DNA from: a virus
Lineage: Duplodnaviria > Heunggongvirae > Uroviricota > Caudoviricetes
IMG/VR virus record: IMGVR_UViG_2778261619_000004
Location: 1-6,592 of that record
Length of the DNA stretch: 6,592 nt
Direction: 5' to 3' (one strand)
A program made the position numbers and the translations under genes. The notes beneath the pieces were generated by a model, which saw nothing but the letters and a program-made list of their open reading frames with translations, was not told the origin of the DNA and made no database searches. Below, one piece after another: positions 1 through 6,592 of this stretch; position 1 is the stretch's first letter, and the number at the start of each line of letters is the position of its first letter.

Positions 1-1283
1 GTTACCTGAACCACAAAACGGCGATGACGTCCCGCCTGCACATCCACTGTCGCCACAAGGAAATTAACGCCATCCGGCACACTGCGGGAAGGAACTGGCT
101 CTGCCCGCTGCTCAAGCAATTCACTTTTTCGTTGCTCCATGCTGGCGCGGGGAAGATAAGGTAATCCCCAGTCGGTATTGATAACCGTCTTGAGTGTCTC
201 TTCACTTCCGGTTGTCTCGTATTCCTGTTCTGCAGTAAGCAGTTTGTAAACGAGTTGCGAGAGTGTCTGATAAGCAGCTGCCGGACCCTCCATCCAGAAT
301 GACGCAATACGTGAACGCCGGGGATCACCATAACGACTGCCATCTGCATTGATGGATTCACCATCCCGTAGCCAGACCCCACGTCCGTTCAGCTCGCGTT
401 TTTGTTCAGGCAAAATCCGTCCTGAACAGGAAGGACACTGAATATAAGCCGCCTCACTTGCCAGCACAGGATCGGCAATATCACGGAAACCAGCAACCAC
501 ATCGCCGCAGGGCTGAAAATACTCACCACAGTGTGGACATGGCCAGTACCAGCGACGGCGATCGCCACGGTTATAGAGCGACAGGATCCCCGTGGTTGGT
601 GGAGCCTCATGCGGTGAAGTCCGTCGCCATTTCACATCCTTCACATCCCTGCCGGGGGAACTCTCCACAAGCGTCATACCACTGGACATAAATGTGGTGG
701 TACGTTTTGAGGCAAGAGAGAAGGCATCCCCCTCGCCATCAATATCTTCCGGAAAACGGTCATAATCCGTCAGCGCCACGCATTTATAATCTGATGAGGA
801 CATGATATTGACTGACGGCCAGCCGATTTTCAGGTAGTTGCCAGCAAGGAATGTTCTGTCATAAACGTTGTTGTCATTTTTGTTCGGACTCAGGCGACTG
901 ACCACTTCCGGGCTGACGCGAAACGTTCTGGCGAGTCGTTTTTTGGAGTGTTCGCGGGCTTTTTCCTCCGTCATCTGAATGATCAGCATATCCGCAGGAT
1001 CGCAAATCACGTTGTAAATCACCCAGCCGTCAATCAGGCCGATAGTCTTGCCGGTTCGTGCCGGGCCAACAAATATCACTGCGTCGTATTCACGCGAGGC
1101 CAGGCAGTTCATCGGCTCAATAACATACGGTGCCACCAGCGGATCCCACGGGACTGAGTTCCCTGCCCCCATGGGCACCCGCATATACTGAGCAACGGCA
1201 TCAGCAACCCGCATTCGTCTCGGTGCGCGAAGGATATAACCTGAATCGGTTCGTGCTGCCTTTGCGGTTTCCTGATTCAGCAT
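1..1283 (-). CDS. Terminase large subunit, lambda gpA family; N-terminal 427 codons, C-terminus lies beyond window start
   Basis: Hand translation of the minus strand from ATG at 1283-1281 is open through position 3 (absent from the ORF track because no stop lies in-window). Begins MLNQETAKAARTDSGYILRAP; has Walker A-like VGPARTGKT and a Cys cluster WPCPHCGEYFQPCGD...IQCPSCSG that parallels lambda gpA (ACPHCGEEQYLKFGD...LCEHNAC, from memory). SD AGGAGGAG lies 5 nt upstream; start overlaps the upstream stop as TAATG. Confidence 0.88.
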   Translation of the reverse strand, partial: MLNQETAKAARTDSGYILRAPRRMRVADAVAQYMRVPMGAGNSVPWDPLVAPYVIEPMNCLASREYDAVIFVGPARTGKTIGLIDGWVIYNVICDPADMLIIQMTEEKAREHSKKRLARTFRVSPEVVSRLSPNKNDNNVYDRTFLAGNYLKIGWPSVNIMSSSDYKCVALTDYDRFPEDIDGEGDAFSLASKRTTTFMSSGMTLVESSPGRDVKDVKWRRTSPHEAPPTTGILSLYNRGDRRRWYWPCPHCGEYFQPCGDVVAGFRDIADPVLASEAAYIQCPSCSGRILPEQKRELNGRGVWLRDGESINADGSRYGDPRRSRIASFWMEGPAAAYQTLSQLVYKLLTAEQEYETTGSEETLKTVINTDWGLPYLPRASMEQRKSELLEQRAEPVPSRSVPDGVNFLVATVDVQAGRHRRFVVQV

Positions 1284-1774
1284 TACTCCTCCTGCTGTAA
1301 TTCCTCCTCATCATCCGCACCTGCTTCGGTCACCCGCAGGGCTATCTGATCGCGCAGATCATCAATAATGGACTGAACACGGCTCACAGCGGCAGGCTGC
1401 AGACCACAGTCACGTTCCAGAATATCCGGTAATGTCTCCAGCACCTGCACGACCGCTTTTGCCCAGATGGCAAACTCCCGTCTGACATCACTGGCCGGAA
1501 TGAGTTGTGCCGTTTCCTGTTCGAACTTAAGACGCTCACGTTCAGACTGATACCAGGCTTTGCGTTCATGTGGATCCATTTCGCCCTCAGCAACCGGCGG
1601 TGGTAACCCCATAAATTCAGTCAGAATATCGGTCAACCGGTATAGCTTGAGTTTGTCATGTCCACCAGCGGGACGAATGTTTTTCAGTCTTGCCACGACA
1701 GTCTGGCGGTGCAGACCAGATAAAGCCGCCAGTTGATTAATATTCAGCACCAGGTTTTTCAATTCATGATCCAT
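1283..1774 (-). CDS. Terminase small subunit, Nu1-like (N-terminal helix-turn-helix DNA-binding domain)
   Basis: 163-aa ORF directly upstream of and overlapping the large terminase, with strong SD GGAGGA. N-terminus LNINQLAALSGLHRQTVVARLKNIRPAGGHDKLKLY follows the lambda Nu1 pattern (HTH, then GGG, then LY; lambda VNKKQLADIFGASIRTIQNW...GGGKGNEVLY). Acidic C-terminal tail. Sits about 175 bp downstream of the predicted cosN, as in lambda. Confidence 0.8.
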   Translation of the reverse strand: MDHELKNLVLNINQLAALSGLHRQTVVARLKNIRPAGGHDKLKLYRLTDILTEFMGLPPPVAEGEMDPHERKAWYQSERERLKFEQETAQLIPASDVRREFAIWAKAVVQVLETLPDILERDCGLQPAAVSRVQSIIDDLRDQIALRVTEAGADDEEELQQEE

Positions 1775-1805
1775 ATTTCCTCCGGAGAGCTTTAAACATG
1801 CATCG

Positions 1806-1866
1806 TGCGAACAACTTTAAGAAAACGCGTTCGATGTCGAACAAAAAACACTCAATTCGACATACA
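1806..1866 (-). promoter_or_regulatory. Putative cosB: small-terminase binding repeats and A-tracts between cosN and the terminase genes
   Basis: Inverted repeat ATGTCGAA (1834-1841) / TTCGACAT (1857-1864); near-palindrome GTTCGA-TG-TCGAAC (1829-1842); CGAACAA at 1808-1814 and 1838-1844; A-tracts at 1843-1849 and 1865-1874. The position matches lambda cosB (R sites plus IHF bend). Confidence 0.35.
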
Positions 1867-1948
1867 AAAAACAAACAACCATTAATAATCAATAAGATGT
1901 AAAGATGATGGTGGCCGATAAAAATGCAAAAACTAGCCTTTTTCCGCG

Positions 1949-1960
1949 ACGCTCCCGCCC
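1949..1960 (-). other. cosN, cohesive-end nicking site of the cos packaging signal; predicted 12-nt end GGGCGGGAGCGT (phage orientation)
   Basis: Reverse complement of 1931-1990 reads CGGGTCCTCCCGGTGGGGTGGCCTGCCACG-GGGCGGGAGCGT-CGCGGAAAAAGG. This is collinear with the lambda cos region as I recall it (ACGGGTCCTTTCCGGTGATCCGACAGGTTACG-GGGCGGCGACCT-CGCGGGTTTTCGC): 16 of 21 matches across the core, plus the conserved CGGGTCCT and CCGGTG blocks on the cosQ side. It lies between the lysis cassette and Nu1-like gene, as expected. Confidence 0.6.
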
Positions 1961-2160
1961 CGTGGCAGGCCACCCCACCGGGAGGACCCGTCAGCCTGGC
2001 AGCCATGAACGAGCGTCTGATACAGAACACAGAAATAAATCAGGCATCCACTGACGTCACACAGACGGTGCATTGCGTCGACAGGAGTAATGGCGTAAGC
2101 TGAACTCTTGGCTCTCTTGTGCCACCGGCGAATCTTCAGCGGATTATCCTTGGCCGGTTT

Positions 2161-2625
2161 TTATCTGAGGCATTGCTCACGAATGTATAGCTGTGCCCCT
2201 TCCAGTTGTTTTTGCATTATTATCAGCCGCTCTCTGAGGGTGAAATAATCCCGTTCAGCGGTGTCTGCCAGTCGGGGGGCGGCTGCATTACCCACGCCGG
2301 TGGCGGCGGTGGCTTCACGTCCGGTCTGACAGACTGCTCTGATGCGCAACCGACGACGACCAGCGGCAATATCATCACGCAGAGCATCATTTTCAGCTTT
2401 TGCATCAGCTAACTCCCTTGAGTATTTTTCATCCAGTGCAGCAACATCACGCTGGCGCTGCTGCATGTCAGTAATGGTGGCGTTCGCCTGGCTGAGTTTT
2501 TCCTTCGCTTTATCGCGCTGGTCTTTGTAGGAGATGGCGTTATCACGGTAATGATTAACAGCCAATGACAGGCAGACGATGATGCAGATAACCAGAGCGG
2601 AGATAATCGCGGTGACTCTGCTCAT
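2161..2625 (-). CDS. Rz: Rz i-spanin (inner-membrane spanin subunit)
   Basis: 154 aa, [34 protein letters not shown]..., near-identical over most of its length to lambda Rz as recalled ([34 protein letters not shown]...). N-terminal TM helix then coiled-coil periplasmic domain. Start overlaps the R stop (ATGA). Confidence 0.93.
2223..2405 (-). CDS. Rz1: Rz1 o-spanin lipoprotein, embedded out of frame within Rz
   Basis: 60 aa, [24 protein letters not shown]...[28 protein letters not shown], with lipobox LVVVGC and proline-rich mature region. Near-identical to lambda Rz1 ([20 protein letters not shown]...[29 protein letters not shown], from memory). Confidence 0.9.
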
Positions 2626-3098
2626 ACCTCAATCTCTCTGACCGTTCCGCCTGCTTCTTTGAATTTTGCAATCAGGCTGTCAACTTTATGCTCGAACTGA
2701 CCATAACCAGCGCCCGGTAGTGAAGCCCAGATATTGCTGCAACGGTCAATTGCCTGACGAATATCACCGCGATCAATCATCGGTAAAGCGCCACGCTCTT
2801 TAATCTGCTGCAGTGCAACAGCGTCCTGGCTTTTCGGAGAGAAGTCTTTCAGGCCAAGCTGCTTGCGGTAGGCATCCCACCAACGGGAAAGAAGCTGGTA
2901 ACGTCCAGCTGCGGTTGATTTAAGTTGCGGGTTTAGCGTAACAAGTTTGCGAGGATGATCGGAGTAATCTGTGAACAGCTCACCACCTACAATAACGTCG
3001 TAGCCGTGATTGCGGGTTGGCTGTCGCCCGTTATCCGTTCCTTCTGACCACGCCAACATATCGAGGAAAGCTTTACGCTGGGAATTTAGTACCTGCAT
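2622..3098 (-). CDS. R: Endolysin, lambda R-type lytic transglycosylase
   Basis: 158 aa, [57 protein letters not shown]..., roughly 95% identical by eye to lambda R including the catalytic-Glu motif AWSEGT. SD AAGGAG 6 nt upstream; only 3 nt after the holin stop. Confidence 0.95.
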
Positions 3099-3101
3099 AA
3101 A

Positions 3102-3428
3102 TTACTCCTTAGAGCCACCAAACTTATTACCGATTACTCTCATTGCAGCCCCACGAATAGCATCGACACCGATCAGCCCCACCCCACCACCAATGGCAAC
3201 AGAAAGCGATTTAGGCCATCCGACATACTCAAGAGCGGATGCAAAAGTCAGCGTCAGAGCGCCACAGAGTAGAATTTCGAGTGTTTTTCGCTTCCAGCCA
3301 CCACCACCGCCAAAATAGGCAATGCGCAAACCAGCCATAACAATCGACATAATCACTGCGCCCAGCGGTGTGTCTCCACGCCACCAGCTCTGGACCAACT
3401 CCAGCCAAGTATTTGGGTTATGAGGCAT
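3102..3428 (-). CDS. Holin, class I (three TM), distant lambda S relative
   Basis: 108 aa directly upstream of R. Three hydrophobic segments (GAVIMSIVMAGLRIAYF, TLEILLCGALTLTFASAL, SLSVAIGGGVGLIGVDAI) and a charged C-terminal tail. The block LGAVIMSIVMAGLRIAYFGGGGG aligns with lambda S IGAILAFAMAYLRGRYNGG. An in-frame TAA two codons upstream of the ATG rules out a longer N-terminus; no Met-Lys-Met dual-start motif. Confidence 0.8.
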   Translation of the reverse strand: MPHNPNTWLELVQSWWRGDTPLGAVIMSIVMAGLRIAYFGGGGGWKRKTLEILLCGALTLTFASALEYVGWPKSLSVAIGGGVGLIGVDAIRGAAMRVIGNKFGGSKE

Positions 3429-3580
3429 TTGTAGTTATCTCTCACCTCGCCGATACAAGAGGTGCAAATTGAGGGAGTACCACGAACCGCAAATCAGAAG
3501 CGGAAACGTAAAAGAAGCCGAGCCAATGGATAAGAGCTAGATAGACCAAGCCCAACGAATACCAAAGCCCAGAAACGACA

Positions 3581-3602
3581 AAACCCGCTCGACGGCGGGT
3601 TT
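3581..3602. terminator. Candidate intrinsic terminator hairpin (8-bp stem AAACCCGC/GCGGGTTT, 6-nt loop)
   Basis: Arms 3581-3588 and 3595-3602 are perfectly complementary. On the minus strand the stem is followed by UGUCGUUUCU (a tR'-like terminator ahead of the holin); on the plus strand only the UUU of the stem is followed by AAGCUG. The A/U-flanked stem could work in either direction. Confidence 0.4.
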
Positions 3603-3718
3603 AAGCTGTGTGGCGAAGTAACCACTCTTAACAGAGTACTGTATTTTTTGCGTACGCATTAGTATTTTTTGAAGTATTATCAACACCAATTGTTCAAAAC
3701 CATTAAAAGGATGTTGTT

Positions 3719-4753
3719 ATGACTGCATCAGCGACCCCCACTAATATCACTCATAAGTTTATTGTTCACATTATGAACAAGGAACAACAGGGGTTAGCCA
3801 CCATTATTCCTTGTCCTTCAGAAAAACCTGTTCAGCAAGCATCAAAAGACCTCTCTAACGCACTTACTGAAAGGTACTCTGGGAGAGCAGGTAAAGGATA
3901 TGGGAAATTTGAAGATGACCGCGATAGTTACCCTATGGGTAATATCGTTGATGATTATTTCGTAAATAAAACACATAGTTTTTATGATACTAGTATCCGA
4001 ATGATCAATCATTTAAAAGCCAGAGCCGATGATGAATCAATGTCTACTGGTGGTTATGTAATAATTGCCCATAATGAGGTAAATGGAAATCATTATTTGA
4101 TGGTTGCAATCCTAACATCAGCAGTTGGCTCTTCAGTCCACGATTTTGAAATTCAAGAAAGTGAATATCTAGACATTGCTAAACTTCGAGTAGCGGGACG
4201 AATTGACTTAACTGGGCGCCAGAATGGCAAAGAGAGATATATTAGCTTTCTAAAGGGGCAAAATTCAGTAGCAGGTTATTTCAAAAAGTTTTTAGGTTGC
4301 AACGATATTCTAATTGCCAAACAAGAAACAACAAAATTACGGAATGCACTTTTAGAATTTGCTACTGAAAGAGGTTTTGAACCAGAGGCACGTGAAGAGT
4401 TCCTAAATAAGGCTCATGAAAAATTAAAAAATTTAAATCGTTCTGGTGAAACTTTCGACACTCAAATTTTTGCAAACGAGATATGGCCAACTGCTCCTGA
4501 GTTGTTAGTTGAAAAGTTAACCAATGACGATCTGGAGTTCTCTGATGGGTTCGTGCCTGATGGCAACGTTATACGTGGGCTTGTTAGTTTCAAAGGAAAG
4601 TCCAAACATTGGTCTCTGAAATTCGAGCGTGCGGCCTTGCATGATGGCAGCGTTCTTTATGATTCAGAAAACGATAAATTGATACTTACCGAGATTCCGG
4701 ATACGCTAAGATCAGAGATTTTATCAGAATTAGGTGAAGAGGATGAGCAGTAA
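3719..4753 (+). CDS. NdpA/YejK-like nucleoid-associated protein homolog (NA37 family), divergent, prophage-encoded
   Basis: 344-aa ORF with ATG start and AAAAGG SD. Collinear similarity to E. coli YejK recalled from memory: [24 protein letters not shown] vs [41 protein letters not shown] vs [27 protein letters not shown] vs TRYLTFLKGR; KFLGC vs DFLGA; [13 protein letters not shown] vs TIKGTPPNLRDQL. AT-rich codon usage unlike the flanking phage genes. Confidence 0.8.
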   Translation: [344 protein letters not shown]

Positions 4754-5921
4754 CAATCAGAGAACCTTCAAAGACTTAGTGACTATTTACAAGGCCGCTA
4801 CATTTGCAGGTACCCTATCTGAAGCATCACTCATTCTTTCAAACGAGGAGCTCTGTGACATCATCAACGATATCACAGAGAATCCCCATGATTTTGGCAT
4901 CACCCTTGAATCTGGCAACATTGAGTTAGGCCAAACTATAACCTTACATATAACCCCCCCCAAATTACGATTGGGGCAGCTACATTTCTCTTTTAATGAG
5001 TATTTAAAAAATCCTAAAAATAGGATAAAGGAAGCCAGTAACTTCTTTATAATCGAACTTAATTATCACAACAGGGATAAAAAGTCGCCTGCTATTATAT
5101 CCAAGTACAGAGATGTTTTGAGCTTAATTACTTTATTCAAAGATTGTTCTGCTTATTTAGATGAAACAAATTTTGAATTGGTATTCGTCGAATCCAACGT
5201 ACTAAAAATTCCAGTAAATTATTCTAGCGATGATCTTATGAATGTTAATGGAGATCTGATTCATAATTTGATCGCAAACTTTGCAGAAGATACGCATAAA
5301 GATCAAAAACTTACTATTTTAGCAAGTAGTATAAAATCATCATGTGAATCTAAAACTAAAGAAACCTCTTTTTCCTTCATGTTAAGGGATTTAGGACAAC
5401 TTTATGAAAGTTATCAAAAAGGATACAAAGTATTCGTTTCTGGTTTTTCTTACGAGAAAATACTGGATCAGTTACGAGTAGCCAAAATAGAAGAGATGGG
5501 GAAAATACATAAAGTATTCAGTGACATACAAAATCAGATATTAGGTATCCCCGTCGCAACAATTATCGTTGCGACTCAAATGAAGCAGGCTAATGGTTGG
5601 GATAGTCAAGCATTAATAAACACAGCTGTAGTGTTGGGTGCATTGTTCTTCACTATTATGATTCTATTTGTTCTATTTAATCAATGGCAAACTTTAACAG
5701 CAATAAATGATGAGTTAAATCATAAAAAACAACAAGCAGAATATAACTTCAAGGCTATTTACGAAGATATAAAGGATACATTTGATAGTTTAACCACAAG
5801 ATTGCTTGTTCAGAAAATTGTTTTTGCCTCATTAGGAATTATAGTTTTATGTGGCTTATATCTTACATTTAGATTCTACTTTTTACTTACGCCTTATGCT
5901 ATTACATATTTATTTAGCTGA
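4743..5921 (+). CDS. Membrane protein of unknown function: about 265-aa soluble N-terminal domain plus 2-3 C-terminal TM helices; candidate effector partner of the NA37 protein
   Basis: The ORF track gives 4734-5921 from GTG. An ATG at 4743, 5 nt after AGGTGA, is the more likely start; it overlaps the upstream gene stop (TAA 4751-4753) by 11 nt. Hydrophobic segments INTAVVLGALFFTIMILFVLF and IVFASLGIIVLCGLYLTF (plus FYFLLTPYAITYLF) are separated by a charged loop. I recognise no catalytic motif. Very AT-rich. Confidence 0.8.
   Translation: MSSNNQRTFKDLVTIYKAATFAGTLSEASLILSNEELCDIINDITENPHDFGITLESGNIELGQTITLHITPPKLRLGQLHFSFNEYLKNPKNRIKEASNFFIIELNYHNRDKKSPAIISKYRDVLSLITLFKDCSAYLDETNFELVFVESNVLKIPVNYSSDDLMNVNGDLIHNLIANFAEDTHKDQKLTILASSIKSSCESKTKETSFSFMLRDLGQLYESYQKGYKVFVSGFSYEKILDQLRVAKIEEMGKIHKVFSDIQNQILGIPVATIIVATQMKQANGWDSQALINTAVVLGALFFTIMILFVLFNQWQTLTAINDELNHKKQQAEYNFKAIYEDIKDTFDSLTTRLLVQKIVFASLGIIVLCGLYLTFRFYFLLTPYAITYLFS
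4954..4961 (+). repeat. Homopolymeric C8 tract inside the membrane-protein CDS (codons Thr-Pro-Pro)
   Basis: Eight consecutive C at 4954-4961 in an otherwise AT-rich gene. By hand translation, a +1 or -1 slip gives a stop within about 20 codons. Confidence 0.9.
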
Positions 5922-5938
5922 CGGCCAATATGGCCGTC
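5920..5938. terminator. Stem-loop between the convergent stops of the cassette and Q (GACGGCC-AATAT-GGCCGTC); possible terminator or insertion-junction remnant
   Basis: Perfect 7-bp GC-rich inverted repeat with 5-nt loop. It starts inside the cassette stop codon (TGA 5919-5921) and ends 8 nt before the Q stop (5946-5948). Plus-strand tail UAAUAAAUU is only moderately U-rich; minus-strand tail is A-rich. Confidence 0.35.
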
Positions 5939-5945
5939 TAATAAA

Positions 5946-6293
5946 TTACCCATGTATTATATATATAACTGCATCAATAAATCCCAATGCAGCTTGCAAC
6001 TTTTTTCTTATAGTCCCATCAGAGCATTTTCTCTTCTTCGCAATAGTGCGTAATGAGATACCGATAACAAAGTGAGCAATTATCAGCTCATACTCTTCCG
6101 GCTTATATTTACGCAACCTAGCCACACAACTATCTATCATGATGCCTTCATCATCATCACACTGGAGACGTGACTTTTTACCGTGTGGTAAAAGTCCCTT
6201 GAAACCAGCCGCTATCGGCTGCCAGTCCACACCACTATTTTCTGCTGCAGCCCATGCTCCCCAGCGGTCCAATACTTCATACATATCACGCAT
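5946..6293 (-). CDS. Late-gene antitermination protein Q (QuuD / phage 82-like small Q family)
   Basis: 115 aa from ATG at 6293-6291 (the ORF track starts one codon earlier at TTG). MRDMYEVLDRWGAWAAAENSGVDWQPIAAGFKGL...RLQCDDDEG resembles E. coli DLP12 QuuD as recalled (MRDIQMVLERWGAWAAN...SSIAAGFKGL...RPQCCDDD). SD GGAG upstream. Positioned upstream of the lysis cassette as in lambdoid phages. Confidence 0.75.
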   Translation of the reverse strand: MRDMYEVLDRWGAWAAAENSGVDWQPIAAGFKGLLPHGKKSRLQCDDDEGIMIDSCVARLRKYKPEEYELIIAHFVIGISLRTIAKKRKCSDGTIRKKLQAALGFIDAVIYIIHG

Positions 6294-6310
6294 CAACTTT
6301 CTCCACCAAA

Positions 6311-6592
6311 TCAGGCCAGCACGCCAATTGCCAGCGCACGATCAATAAAACGAAATATCAGCTCCAACTGGGAGCCATACTTCTCTTCAAATGCCACGGT
6401 ATCCGCATGCAGCTCGTCGTGATGCTTTCTGCACAAAGGCAACACAAAGAGGTCATGCGCTTTTGTACCCATTCCCCCCTGACCGTGGCCTATCAGGTGG
6501 TGGGGATCATCAGCAGGCTTTCCACAACATGCACACGGCTGTGTCTTAACCCAGCGCGTGTACTTTTCATTAACCCAGCGGCGACGTTTTGG
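6311..6592 (-). CDS. Cys/His-rich nin-region protein, possibly YbcO-like putative nuclease; C-terminal 93 codons, N-terminus outside window
   Basis: Minus-strand frame open from the window edge to TGA at 6313-6311, 17 bp upstream of Q. Translation ...QPCACCGKPADDPHHLIGHGQGGMGTKAHDLFVLPLCRKHHDELH... has a CxxC...HH...C..HH..H cluster. The block HLIGHGQGGMGTKAHDL...CRKHHDEL loosely parallels my recollection of DLP12 YbcO (HIRLTGLCGTGTKPPDL...CSACHDEI). Confidence 0.5.
   Translation of the reverse strand, partial: PKRRRWVNEKYTRWVKTQPCACCGKPADDPHHLIGHGQGGMGTKAHDLFVLPLCRKHHDELHADTVAFEEKYGSQLELIFRFIDRALAIGVLA

Follow-up and report, generated by a model that had tools for sequence, protein, structure and literature searches.

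Results

A prophage insert encoding a nucleoid-associated protein and a membrane protein

The DNA investigated here, which we call the window, is a stretch of 6,592 nucleotides (positions 1 to 6,592 of the IMG/VR virus record IMGVR_UViG_2778261619_000004, Caudoviricetes) and constitutes the late-control and lysis region of a lambdoid Escherichia coli prophage in its minus-strand reading. Our interest concerns the gene at 4743-5921, which encodes a membrane protein and follows directly on the gene of a nucleoid-associated protein (NAP) of the NA37/YejK type, both residing in a low-GC insert on the opposite strand. In the analysis described below, the membrane protein emerges as the probable effector of a prophage-borne abortive-infection system, with its NA37 neighbour as the likely sensor. 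The insert and its two genes are organized as follows.

3671-5945, plus strand: low-GC cargo insert of about 2.27 kb with the two-gene system, delimited by the GC profile and by alignment of the flanks
3719-4753, plus strand: NA37/YejK-like nucleoid-associated protein of 344 residues, predicted infection sensor (PagA/DS-1A-like), matching PF04245 with E = 8.3e-69
4743-5921, plus strand: coding sequence of a 392-residue candidate membrane effector (PagB/DS-1B-like), from ATG at 4743 to TGA at 5921

The original prediction had placed the membrane protein beside a holin-endolysin cassette and an NA37 gene, and both neighbours were recovered from the open reading frames (ORFs) and Pfam matches of the window. 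The two genes of the insert share a strand and the effector start overlaps the NA37 stop by 11 nucleotides (4743-4753). An in-frame GTG at 4734 would lengthen the effector by three residues; the start methionine at 4743 is shared among homologs. In RefSeq, the same coding sequence appears as WP_053264141.1 ('hypothetical protein') within an intact lambdoid prophage, where the stretch containing it is 100% identical over window positions 3430-5945.

Features of the candidate effector

To characterize the membrane protein, we combined hydropathy profiles (19-residue Kyte-Doolittle windows, with 60 aligned homologs for comparison) with structure prediction by AlphaFold2 (AF2). This defines the following segments, all on the plus strand, where TM denotes a transmembrane helix and DMK a DNA-mimicking domain.

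4767-5285, plus strand: N-terminal α/β domain, residues 9-181, predicted to bind the NAP (DMK-like) and moderately acidic
5298-5528, plus strand: stalk and juxtamembrane region (residues 186-262), helical in AF2 and containing DTHKDQKL and GFSYEK as motifs
5529-5585, plus strand: TM1, residues 263-281, QNQILGIPVATIIVATQMK, short and moderately hydrophobic with a peak hydropathy of 1.37
5613-5678, plus strand: TM2, residues 291-312, LINTAVVLGALFFTIMILFVLF, peak hydropathy 2.72 and at least 2.42 in all 60 homologs
5679-5813, plus strand: hairpin of polar helices linking TM2 to TM3 (residues 313-357), predicted to be cytoplasmic
5814-5918, plus strand: TM3 (residues 358-376) with an aromatic and hydrophobic C-terminal tail (377-392), peak hydropathy 2.27 and at least 1.99 in all 60 homologs

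The two to three C-terminal transmembrane helices that were initially proposed thus correspond to two strong blocks, found in every one of the 60 homologs, and one weaker block at residues 263-281. Two non-overlapping windows with values of at least 2.27 occur with P = 0.002 in composition-preserving shuffles of the sequence, and the hydrophobicity of TM2 and TM3 is retained throughout the alignment even though only 47-59% of their residues match the majority. TM2 is flanked by invariant residues, N293 on one side and N313/Q314 on the other. The hairpin connecting TM2 and TM3 contains five lysines and arginines (family median 6.5) versus one in the loop between TM1 and TM2, and should therefore be cytoplasmic according to the positive-inside rule. 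These features favour a predicted topology with the N-terminus inside, three membrane-spanning helices, a cytoplasmic hairpin and the C-terminus outside.

The AF2 model of the effector, which is based on the 60-sequence alignment, has a mean predicted local distance difference test (pLDDT) score of 80.7. It shows the α/β domain at residues 9-181 followed by helices at 186-202, 209-215, 217-279, 288-335, 340-382 and 384-391; the helix 217-279, 63 residues long, ends in TM1. As these helices extend beyond the membrane segments, the hydrophobic blocks would constitute the membrane ends of very long helices. A separate model of the N-domain, built from homolog fragments, reached a pLDDT of 92. A Foldseek search of the entire model against the Protein Data Bank (PDB) gave no match (best E = 0.69) and a sequence search of the PDB with the profile of the effector family returned zero hits, and hence no relative of solved structure. 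The N-domain carries a net charge of -7 over 181 residues (23 D/E versus 16 K/R), close to the family median of -8 in a range of -15 to +2, and thus is only moderately acidic. Its fold bears a weak resemblance to scaffolds that bind DNA, among them WhiA/LAGLIDADG and winged-helix proteins. Together with the coupling of a DNA-binding NAP to a membrane protein whose N-domain would face the cytoplasm, this resemblance could be taken to indicate a role outside of defence, with the pair acting as a tether between nucleoid and membrane or as a DNA-organizing device that, for example, anchors DNA at the membrane to the advantage of the mobile element or the host, although we regard such a function as extremely unlikely.

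The description of the soluble part as motif-less was only partly borne out, and that of the protein as an orphan was wrong. Scans with Pfam and PADLOC (2023) did not match the effector, but the protein belongs to a sizeable family with strongly conserved motifs of its own, including DTH[KR][DE]QKL, GFSY[DE]K and IQNQILGIPVATIIVATQMK. A search of a database clustered at 90% identity detected 369 homologous proteins with E ≤ 1e-3, which are either unnamed or called 'phage-related membrane protein' and none of which contains a Pfam domain. A profile search of 1.84 billion representatives retrieved 1,153 clusters at 50% identity, 791 of them with E ≤ 1e-10, with almost all clusters being 390-420 residues long and matching end to end. 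In addition, the effector matches PHROG 5023, a family of 'unknown function', with E = 6e-80. A weak match to YbhQ (E = 0.055) was dismissed as noise originating from hydrophobic composition.

Conservation within the family, expressed as the frequency of the majority residue, is unevenly distributed. It is lowest in the N-domain (0.49), increases to 0.67 in the stalk and is highest in TM1 (0.90). Invariant positions comprise H185, G227, Y228, F235, S236, Y237, K239, A247, K248 and E250 in the stalk and Q263, N264, L267, G268, P270, T278 and Q279 in TM1. Such a distribution fits a conserved membrane 'business end' that would be joined to a partner-specific recognition domain.

The NA37 partner and its coupling to the effector

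In the partner protein (RefSeq WP_000127202.1, 'nucleoid-associated protein'), the NA37 domain spans residues 15-330 of 344. The protein matches the structure of YejK (PDB 9be2) with E = 1.7e-19 and scores 164.8 bits against the NCBIfam model of YejK (NF001557), below the equivalog cut-off of 341, and we therefore regard it as a paralog on a mobile element instead of the housekeeping ortholog. PADLOC (2023) contains no model for either protein of the pair.

To establish how regularly both genes occur together, we surveyed 45 loci with effector homologs, taking one genome per species, by tblastn. Coupling is nearly universal: in 41 of the 45 loci an NA37 gene is located directly upstream of the effector gene on the same strand, either abutting or overlapping it. 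The four exceptions comprise three identical Cupriavidus-type remnants and one tiny fragment. Across loci, the identities of NA37 and effector proteins to the window pair co-vary with a Pearson r of 0.88, and the two genes thus travel as a unit.

Two variations of this arrangement deserve mention. The Cupriavidus-type loci (L041-L043, 6004-6630, from two Cupriavidus genomes and one metagenome-assembled genome (MAG)) contain a 208-residue fragment of stalk and TM segments with a TTG start and no NA37 gene. We considered whether this fragment might be a free-standing effector module and rejected the idea in view of its length, its start codon and the missing partner gene, which suggest a decayed remnant. 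In a contig of Acinetobacter phage MD-2021a (L055, 1752-4743), ndpA is followed by a gene for a 417-residue protein and by an overlapping gene for a 210-residue protein. The 417-residue protein, in which only the C-terminal stalk and TM module (213-371) is recognizable, still resides directly 3' of ndpA. It belongs to a distant subfamily, and the locus may represent a three-gene variant of the system.

Relationship to DS-1

DS-1 (working ID D390) is a validated two-gene anti-phage system of E. coli that was reported in the DefensePredictor study (Science 2026; PMC13092281). It consists of WP_000355468.1, which combines a zinc ribbon with an NA37 domain, and the 404-residue WP_000150292.1 (PMC13092281); NCBIfam represents the two proteins by the models NF053868/NF053869. 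Expressed as -log10 of the efficiency of plating, its protection amounts to 7.6 for Bas1, 2.7 for Bas26, 1.7 for Bas3 and T3 and 1.0 for T5, and it defends when cloned alone in MG1655, where no phage lysis genes are present (PMC13092281).

Both proteins of the pair are homologous to their DS-1 counterparts. The effector matches the NCBIfam (2026) model DS1_2_antiphage with E = 1.6e-19 and 70.2 bits (residues 86-333 versus 36-287 of the 337 model positions), below the equivalog cut-off of 315 bits. In BLASTP it is 28% identical to DS-1B, the second protein of the system, along 104 collinear residues (E = 4e-7), and hhalign aligns residues 75-359 with 72-366 over 268 columns at a probability of 93.8% (E = 1.7e-7), with the stalk as the best-aligning region. 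The NAP in turn matches DS1_1_antiphage ('nucleoid-associated anti-phage protein') with E = 2.8e-15 and 56.2 bits, compared to a cut-off of 330 bits, and is 25% identical to DS-1A over 197 residues in BLASTP (E = 3e-10). With scores that are significant but below the cut-offs, the pair is a distant homolog of DS-1 and not an equivalog.

Besides homology over most of the effector and over the NAP, the pair shares with DS-1 the gene order, in which a protein of the NA37/YejK type precedes a protein of about 400 residues with a C-terminal hydrophobic module. The N-domains of the effectors are also similar in net charge, with -7 in the window protein and -9 in DS-1B. The systems differ in the N-terminus of the NAP and in gene spacing: DS-1A starts with a CxxC...CxxC zinc ribbon (MDITCLECGN...CDKCG) and has its NA37 domain at 42-382, whereas in the window NAP, where NA37 begins at residue 15, the zinc ribbon and any motif of cysteine pairs are absent. 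Similarly, the DS-1 genes are separated by 2 nucleotides whereas the window genes overlap by 11.

Relationship to PANGU and other defence systems

A second point of reference is provided by type II PANGU systems, defined in a bioRxiv preprint of 2026, in which the YejK-like NAP Pag2A is paired with the effector Pag2B, composed of an N-terminal acidic DMK domain and a C-terminal TM domain (10.64898/2026.04.06.716658). Their example PANGU-Ecu from 'E. coli upec' protects against T4 or Bas34 by 3-4 orders of magnitude in dependence on both genes, with growth curves resembling abortive infection and with escape via mutations in T4 denA (EndoII) (10.64898/2026.04.06.716658). Upon infection, GFP-Pag2A leaves the nucleoid, and Pag2A binds the DMK domain of Pag2B with a dissociation constant of 19 nM, whereas the activation of Pag2B by Pag2A 'remains to be determined' (10.64898/2026.04.06.716658).

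The window pair resembles type II PANGU in architecture, in that a YejK-like NAP forms a tight bicistronic operon with a partner containing a TM domain. Type II systems are delineated by genes on the same strand spaced by less than 40 bp and by a C-terminal TM domain in the effector; in the window, the genes are on the same strand with an 11-nucleotide overlap and the effector contains TM2 and TM3 at its C-terminus. A further parallel is the spread over phyla and over mobile or defence loci. As differences, the window copy occupies a cargo slot of a prophage and not a classical defence island, and its N-domain is only moderately acidic. In type I PANGU, where Pag1A is combined with the GRel toxSAS protein Pag1B, the NAP freed from the degraded nucleoid likewise binds a DNA-mimicking domain of the effector, but Pag1B is a soluble alarmone synthetase producing pppGpp and is not homologous to the effector of the window. 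For relatives of the pair, published experiments have established protection against phages, dependence on both genes, a phenotype of abortive infection, relocation of the NAP and its binding to the effector N-domain, and by analogy these properties may also extend to the pair investigated here.

The proximity of the two genes could alternatively reflect a module of the toxin-antitoxin kind, serving addiction or superinfection exclusion, in which a constitutively toxic membrane protein would be held in check by the NAP, acting as antitoxin and not as a sensor of DNA damage, and the prophage thereby be stabilized. The overlapping two-gene operon on mobile elements, the tight co-variation of both genes and a small membrane module of a type that is common in toxins are all compatible with such a mechanism. 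However, in type II PANGU neither pagA nor pagB is toxic by itself and PagA serves as activator and not as antitoxin (10.64898/2026.04.06.716658). The Cupriavidus-type remnant, which has kept a membrane fragment in the absence of NA37, is equally unexpected for an unneutralized toxin, with the qualification that this fragment may be dead. We thus consider a toxin-antitoxin module very unlikely.

Kiwa, another defence system of two genes, combines the membrane protein KwaA with a cytoplasmic DNA-associated partner, the DUF4868 protein KwaB. It differs from the window pair in the protein families, the gene order and the roles of its components, and the PADLOC models of Kiwa did not match the pair.

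Distribution of the family and genomic surroundings

The 45 loci of the survey span Gamma-, Beta-, Alpha- and Deltaproteobacteria and include a few MAGs of other phyla. According to a panel of marker genes and the Pfam assignments of 147 ORFs in the flanks, their surroundings are dominated by genes of prophages, integrases, resolvases, conjugation and restriction-modification systems. In lambdoid prophages (the window, L001, L002 and L050), the pair is inserted between the genes for the antiterminator Q and the holin on the strand opposite to the late operon. The Salmonella representative (L050) uses this same slot next to a different holin and lysozyme. In Mu-like prophages of Klebsiella and Pectobacterium, by contrast, the pair lies directly upstream of Holin_2-3 and SLT genes and in the same direction.

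L047 8001-9200, L054 8001-9182 and L004/L006/L007/L010: Mu-like prophage loci containing the pair

Outside of these prophages, the pair is found in an integrase island with DNA methylases in Methylotenera and on plasmids of Sphingomonas and Methylobacter, among others.

This distribution bears on the second proposal of the original prediction, a lysis-related role, for which the recurrence beside lysis cassettes stands while other observations argue against it. In such a scenario the pair would serve the lysis of its carrier phage, with the membrane protein tuning the triggering of the holin as a modifier of the lysis clock and the NAP signalling the condition of host or phage DNA. That lambdoid and Mu-like prophages, two unrelated lineages, both have the pair next to a holin-endolysin cassette may be functionally meaningful, and PHROG families exist for both proteins. 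On the other hand, a holin or endolysin gene lies no more than two ORFs away in only about 8 of 40 loci, many members have no lysis genes next to them, for instance those on islands and plasmids, and the family is rare in phages, with representatives in 6 of 50,697 sequenced genomes. In lambdoid prophages the pair runs against the late operon and occupies a slot that contains unrelated cargo in sister phages. The protein itself, with 392 residues encoded on the opposite strand, departs from the small proteins (<150 residues) with one to three TM helices, co-transcribed with endolysin, that would be expected for this role, and it shows no match to holin, antiholin or spanin families in Pfam or PHROG. 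Finally, the homologous DS-1 pair protects MG1655 in the absence of phage lysis genes. The recurrence beside lysis cassettes is most simply accounted for if early/late boundaries gather cargo, and together with the opposite orientation and the activity of DS-1 without phage genes this renders a function in lysis timing highly improbable.

Proposed role as NAP-sensing abortive-infection system

The architecture of the pair, its NA37 linkage, its homology to DS-1 and its status as prophage cargo are all direct observations. The coupling to NA37, the DS-1 homology and the type II PANGU architecture support the suggestion made at the outset that the membrane protein is an abortive-infection effector acting with an NA37 partner, and we consider 4743-5921 the probable effector gene of a system of the type II PANGU/DS-1 kind that the prophage carries, with the NA37 neighbour as its sensor. 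In a lysogen, the NA37/YejK-like protein (3719-4753) would be associated with the host nucleoid. A superinfecting lytic phage that degrades the host DNA, as T4 EndoII does in triggering PANGU, would release the NAP, which could then bind the membrane protein at its moderately acidic N-terminal α/β domain (residues 9-181). From there the signal would propagate along the 63-residue stalk helix to the three-helix membrane module (263-281, 291-312 and 358-376) and this module, probably as an oligomer, would compromise the inner membrane, so that the infected cell stops supporting phage growth. By analogy to its relatives, this particular pair would thus confer defence, with membrane permeabilization as presumed killing step.

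Several points weigh against this interpretation. Defence by this particular pair is predicted from sequence, and its function is carried over from relatives across about 25-28% identity, with effector and NAP both scoring far below the equivalog cut-offs of DS-1. The likeness of the window effector to Pag2B is one of architecture. Damage to the membrane is a presumed activity for every member of the family, including Pag2B (10.64898/2026.04.06.716658). The fold searches return generic helical matches only, PADLOC offers no model for the effector, and a simple scan of the region upstream of the NA37 gene (3719) detected no convincing sigma-70 consensus promoter.

The predicted layout of the effector, with a cytoplasmic α/β domain, a stalk helix leading into TM1, a short outer loop and a returning TM helix, is analogous to that of CorA. 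Compared to the CorA/Mrs2 channels and the ClyA pore, the sequence identity is 7-11%, and the window protein contains no GMN motif and has a third TM helix. The matches were no better than those to generic coiled coils or designed bundles at the same Z-score and do not indicate membership in either the CorA/Mrs2 or the ClyA family. The analogy nevertheless permits a bolder and, in our view, unlikely proposal, in which the stalk and three-TM module, with its invariant QN-x2-LG-x-P...TQ signature in TM1, would be an unrecognized ligand-gated oligomeric pore of CorA-like organization, opened when unbound nucleoid protein docks to an N-domain that would be a degenerate relative of LAGLIDADG proteins. 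In that case the placement next to lysis cassettes would be functional, and upon attack of the lysogen by a competitor phage the sensing of nucleoid integrity would set off premature lysis or a lesion of the holin type.

With respect to the favoured role in abortive infection, the first validation and description of such systems dates to 2025-2026 and the window pair reveals no new principle. What it adds is a predicted NAP-sensor and membrane-effector defence that lambdoid prophages of E. coli and Salmonella carry as a moron between Q and holin, and Mu-like ones beside their lysis genes. If defence is carried as prophage cargo, it would enable a temperate phage to protect its lysogen from lytic competitors that degrade DNA. 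Temperate phages are not known to break down the host chromosome, and the logic of nucleoid sensing would suit them. Beyond the two validated examples, sequence space is widened to about 1,150 clusters at 50% identity with near-uniform architecture for which Pfam and PADLOC contain no model, and the effector, whose killing mechanism was left open in the PANGU study, now has high-confidence structural models and a catalogue of invariant residues.

The insert and its place in the lambdoid prophage

The boundaries of the insert are apparent from its composition, with a GC content of 30-42% inside compared to 50-56% in the flanks. Its right edge is the stop codon of Q at 5946, and its left edge was set by alignment with PhiR5_1, where an element corresponding to 3670->3580 is found directly 3' of Q. 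The insert is surrounded by the following features.

1283-1774, minus strand: DUF1441 protein, context
2161-2625 and 2223-2405, minus strand: Rz and Rz1, PF03245 with E = 6.9e-49, labelled as lysis protein by RefSeq in related cassettes
2622-3098, minus strand: endolysin, annotated by RefSeq in related cassettes as glycoside hydrolase (GH104 or GH24, differing between records)
3102-3428, minus strand: lambda-type holin S, PF05106 with E = 5.7e-25; the lysis cassette at 2161-3428 is outside the system
3580-3670, minus strand: Q-proximal lambdoid element of about 90 bp, with matches of 83-92 bp and 86-92% identity beside Q in many phages
5920-5938: 7-bp perfect inverted repeat GACGGCC-aatat-GGCCGTC, located in the 24-bp gap between the convergent stops of effector and Q
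5946-6296, minus strand: antiterminator Q, PF06530 with E = 1.2e-44, context outside the system
6311-6472, minus strand: tail of a DUF968 gene, context

The cassette annotations were borrowed from related E. coli genomes, among them L001 with 95.6% identity over window positions 2356-6592; the Pfam scan gave no match for the window endolysin itself. The large-terminase gene terL is missing from the ORF list because its ORF runs off the left end of the window, and for the same reason we rejected a degraded terminase gene at 1-1283.

The Q-proximal element adjoins the Q stop codon in PhiR5_1 and is found near Q in Stx2 phages, whereas in the window the 2.27-kb insert separates Q from this leader/terminator element. 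It ends in a strong terminator-like hairpin at 3602-3581 (AAACCCGCCGTCGAGCGGGTTT, eight pairs followed by a T-run). The inverted repeat on the other side of the insert may act as bidirectional terminator, although a simple terminator scan did not call it. The late promoter pR' was sought by scan and comparison and was not located.

Phage mEp460 shares 90% DNA identity with the window in its Q region and has other cargo in the same slot. Such differing content in phages with the same or a related Q identifies the position between Q and holin as a cargo (moron) slot and illustrates how accessory genes, possibly with roles in defence, are exchanged there. In mEp460_4F5 (L049), the slot between Q and holin contains a gene for a 308-residue hypothetical protein on the opposite strand (1985-2911) and a Dam-type methyltransferase at 314-1366.

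The window as a whole is a mosaic, as not one complete E. coli genome contains at least 80% of it in one piece. Its first part (1-1290), comprising the start of the terminase large subunit and DUF1441, is present in about 1,960 genomes, whereas the pair occurs in 16 of 5,426 complete E. coli genomes. Positions 2198-6592 are found with 96.6% identity in two complete genomes, and 2507-6592 with about 99% identity in several more of the 16 carrying the pair.

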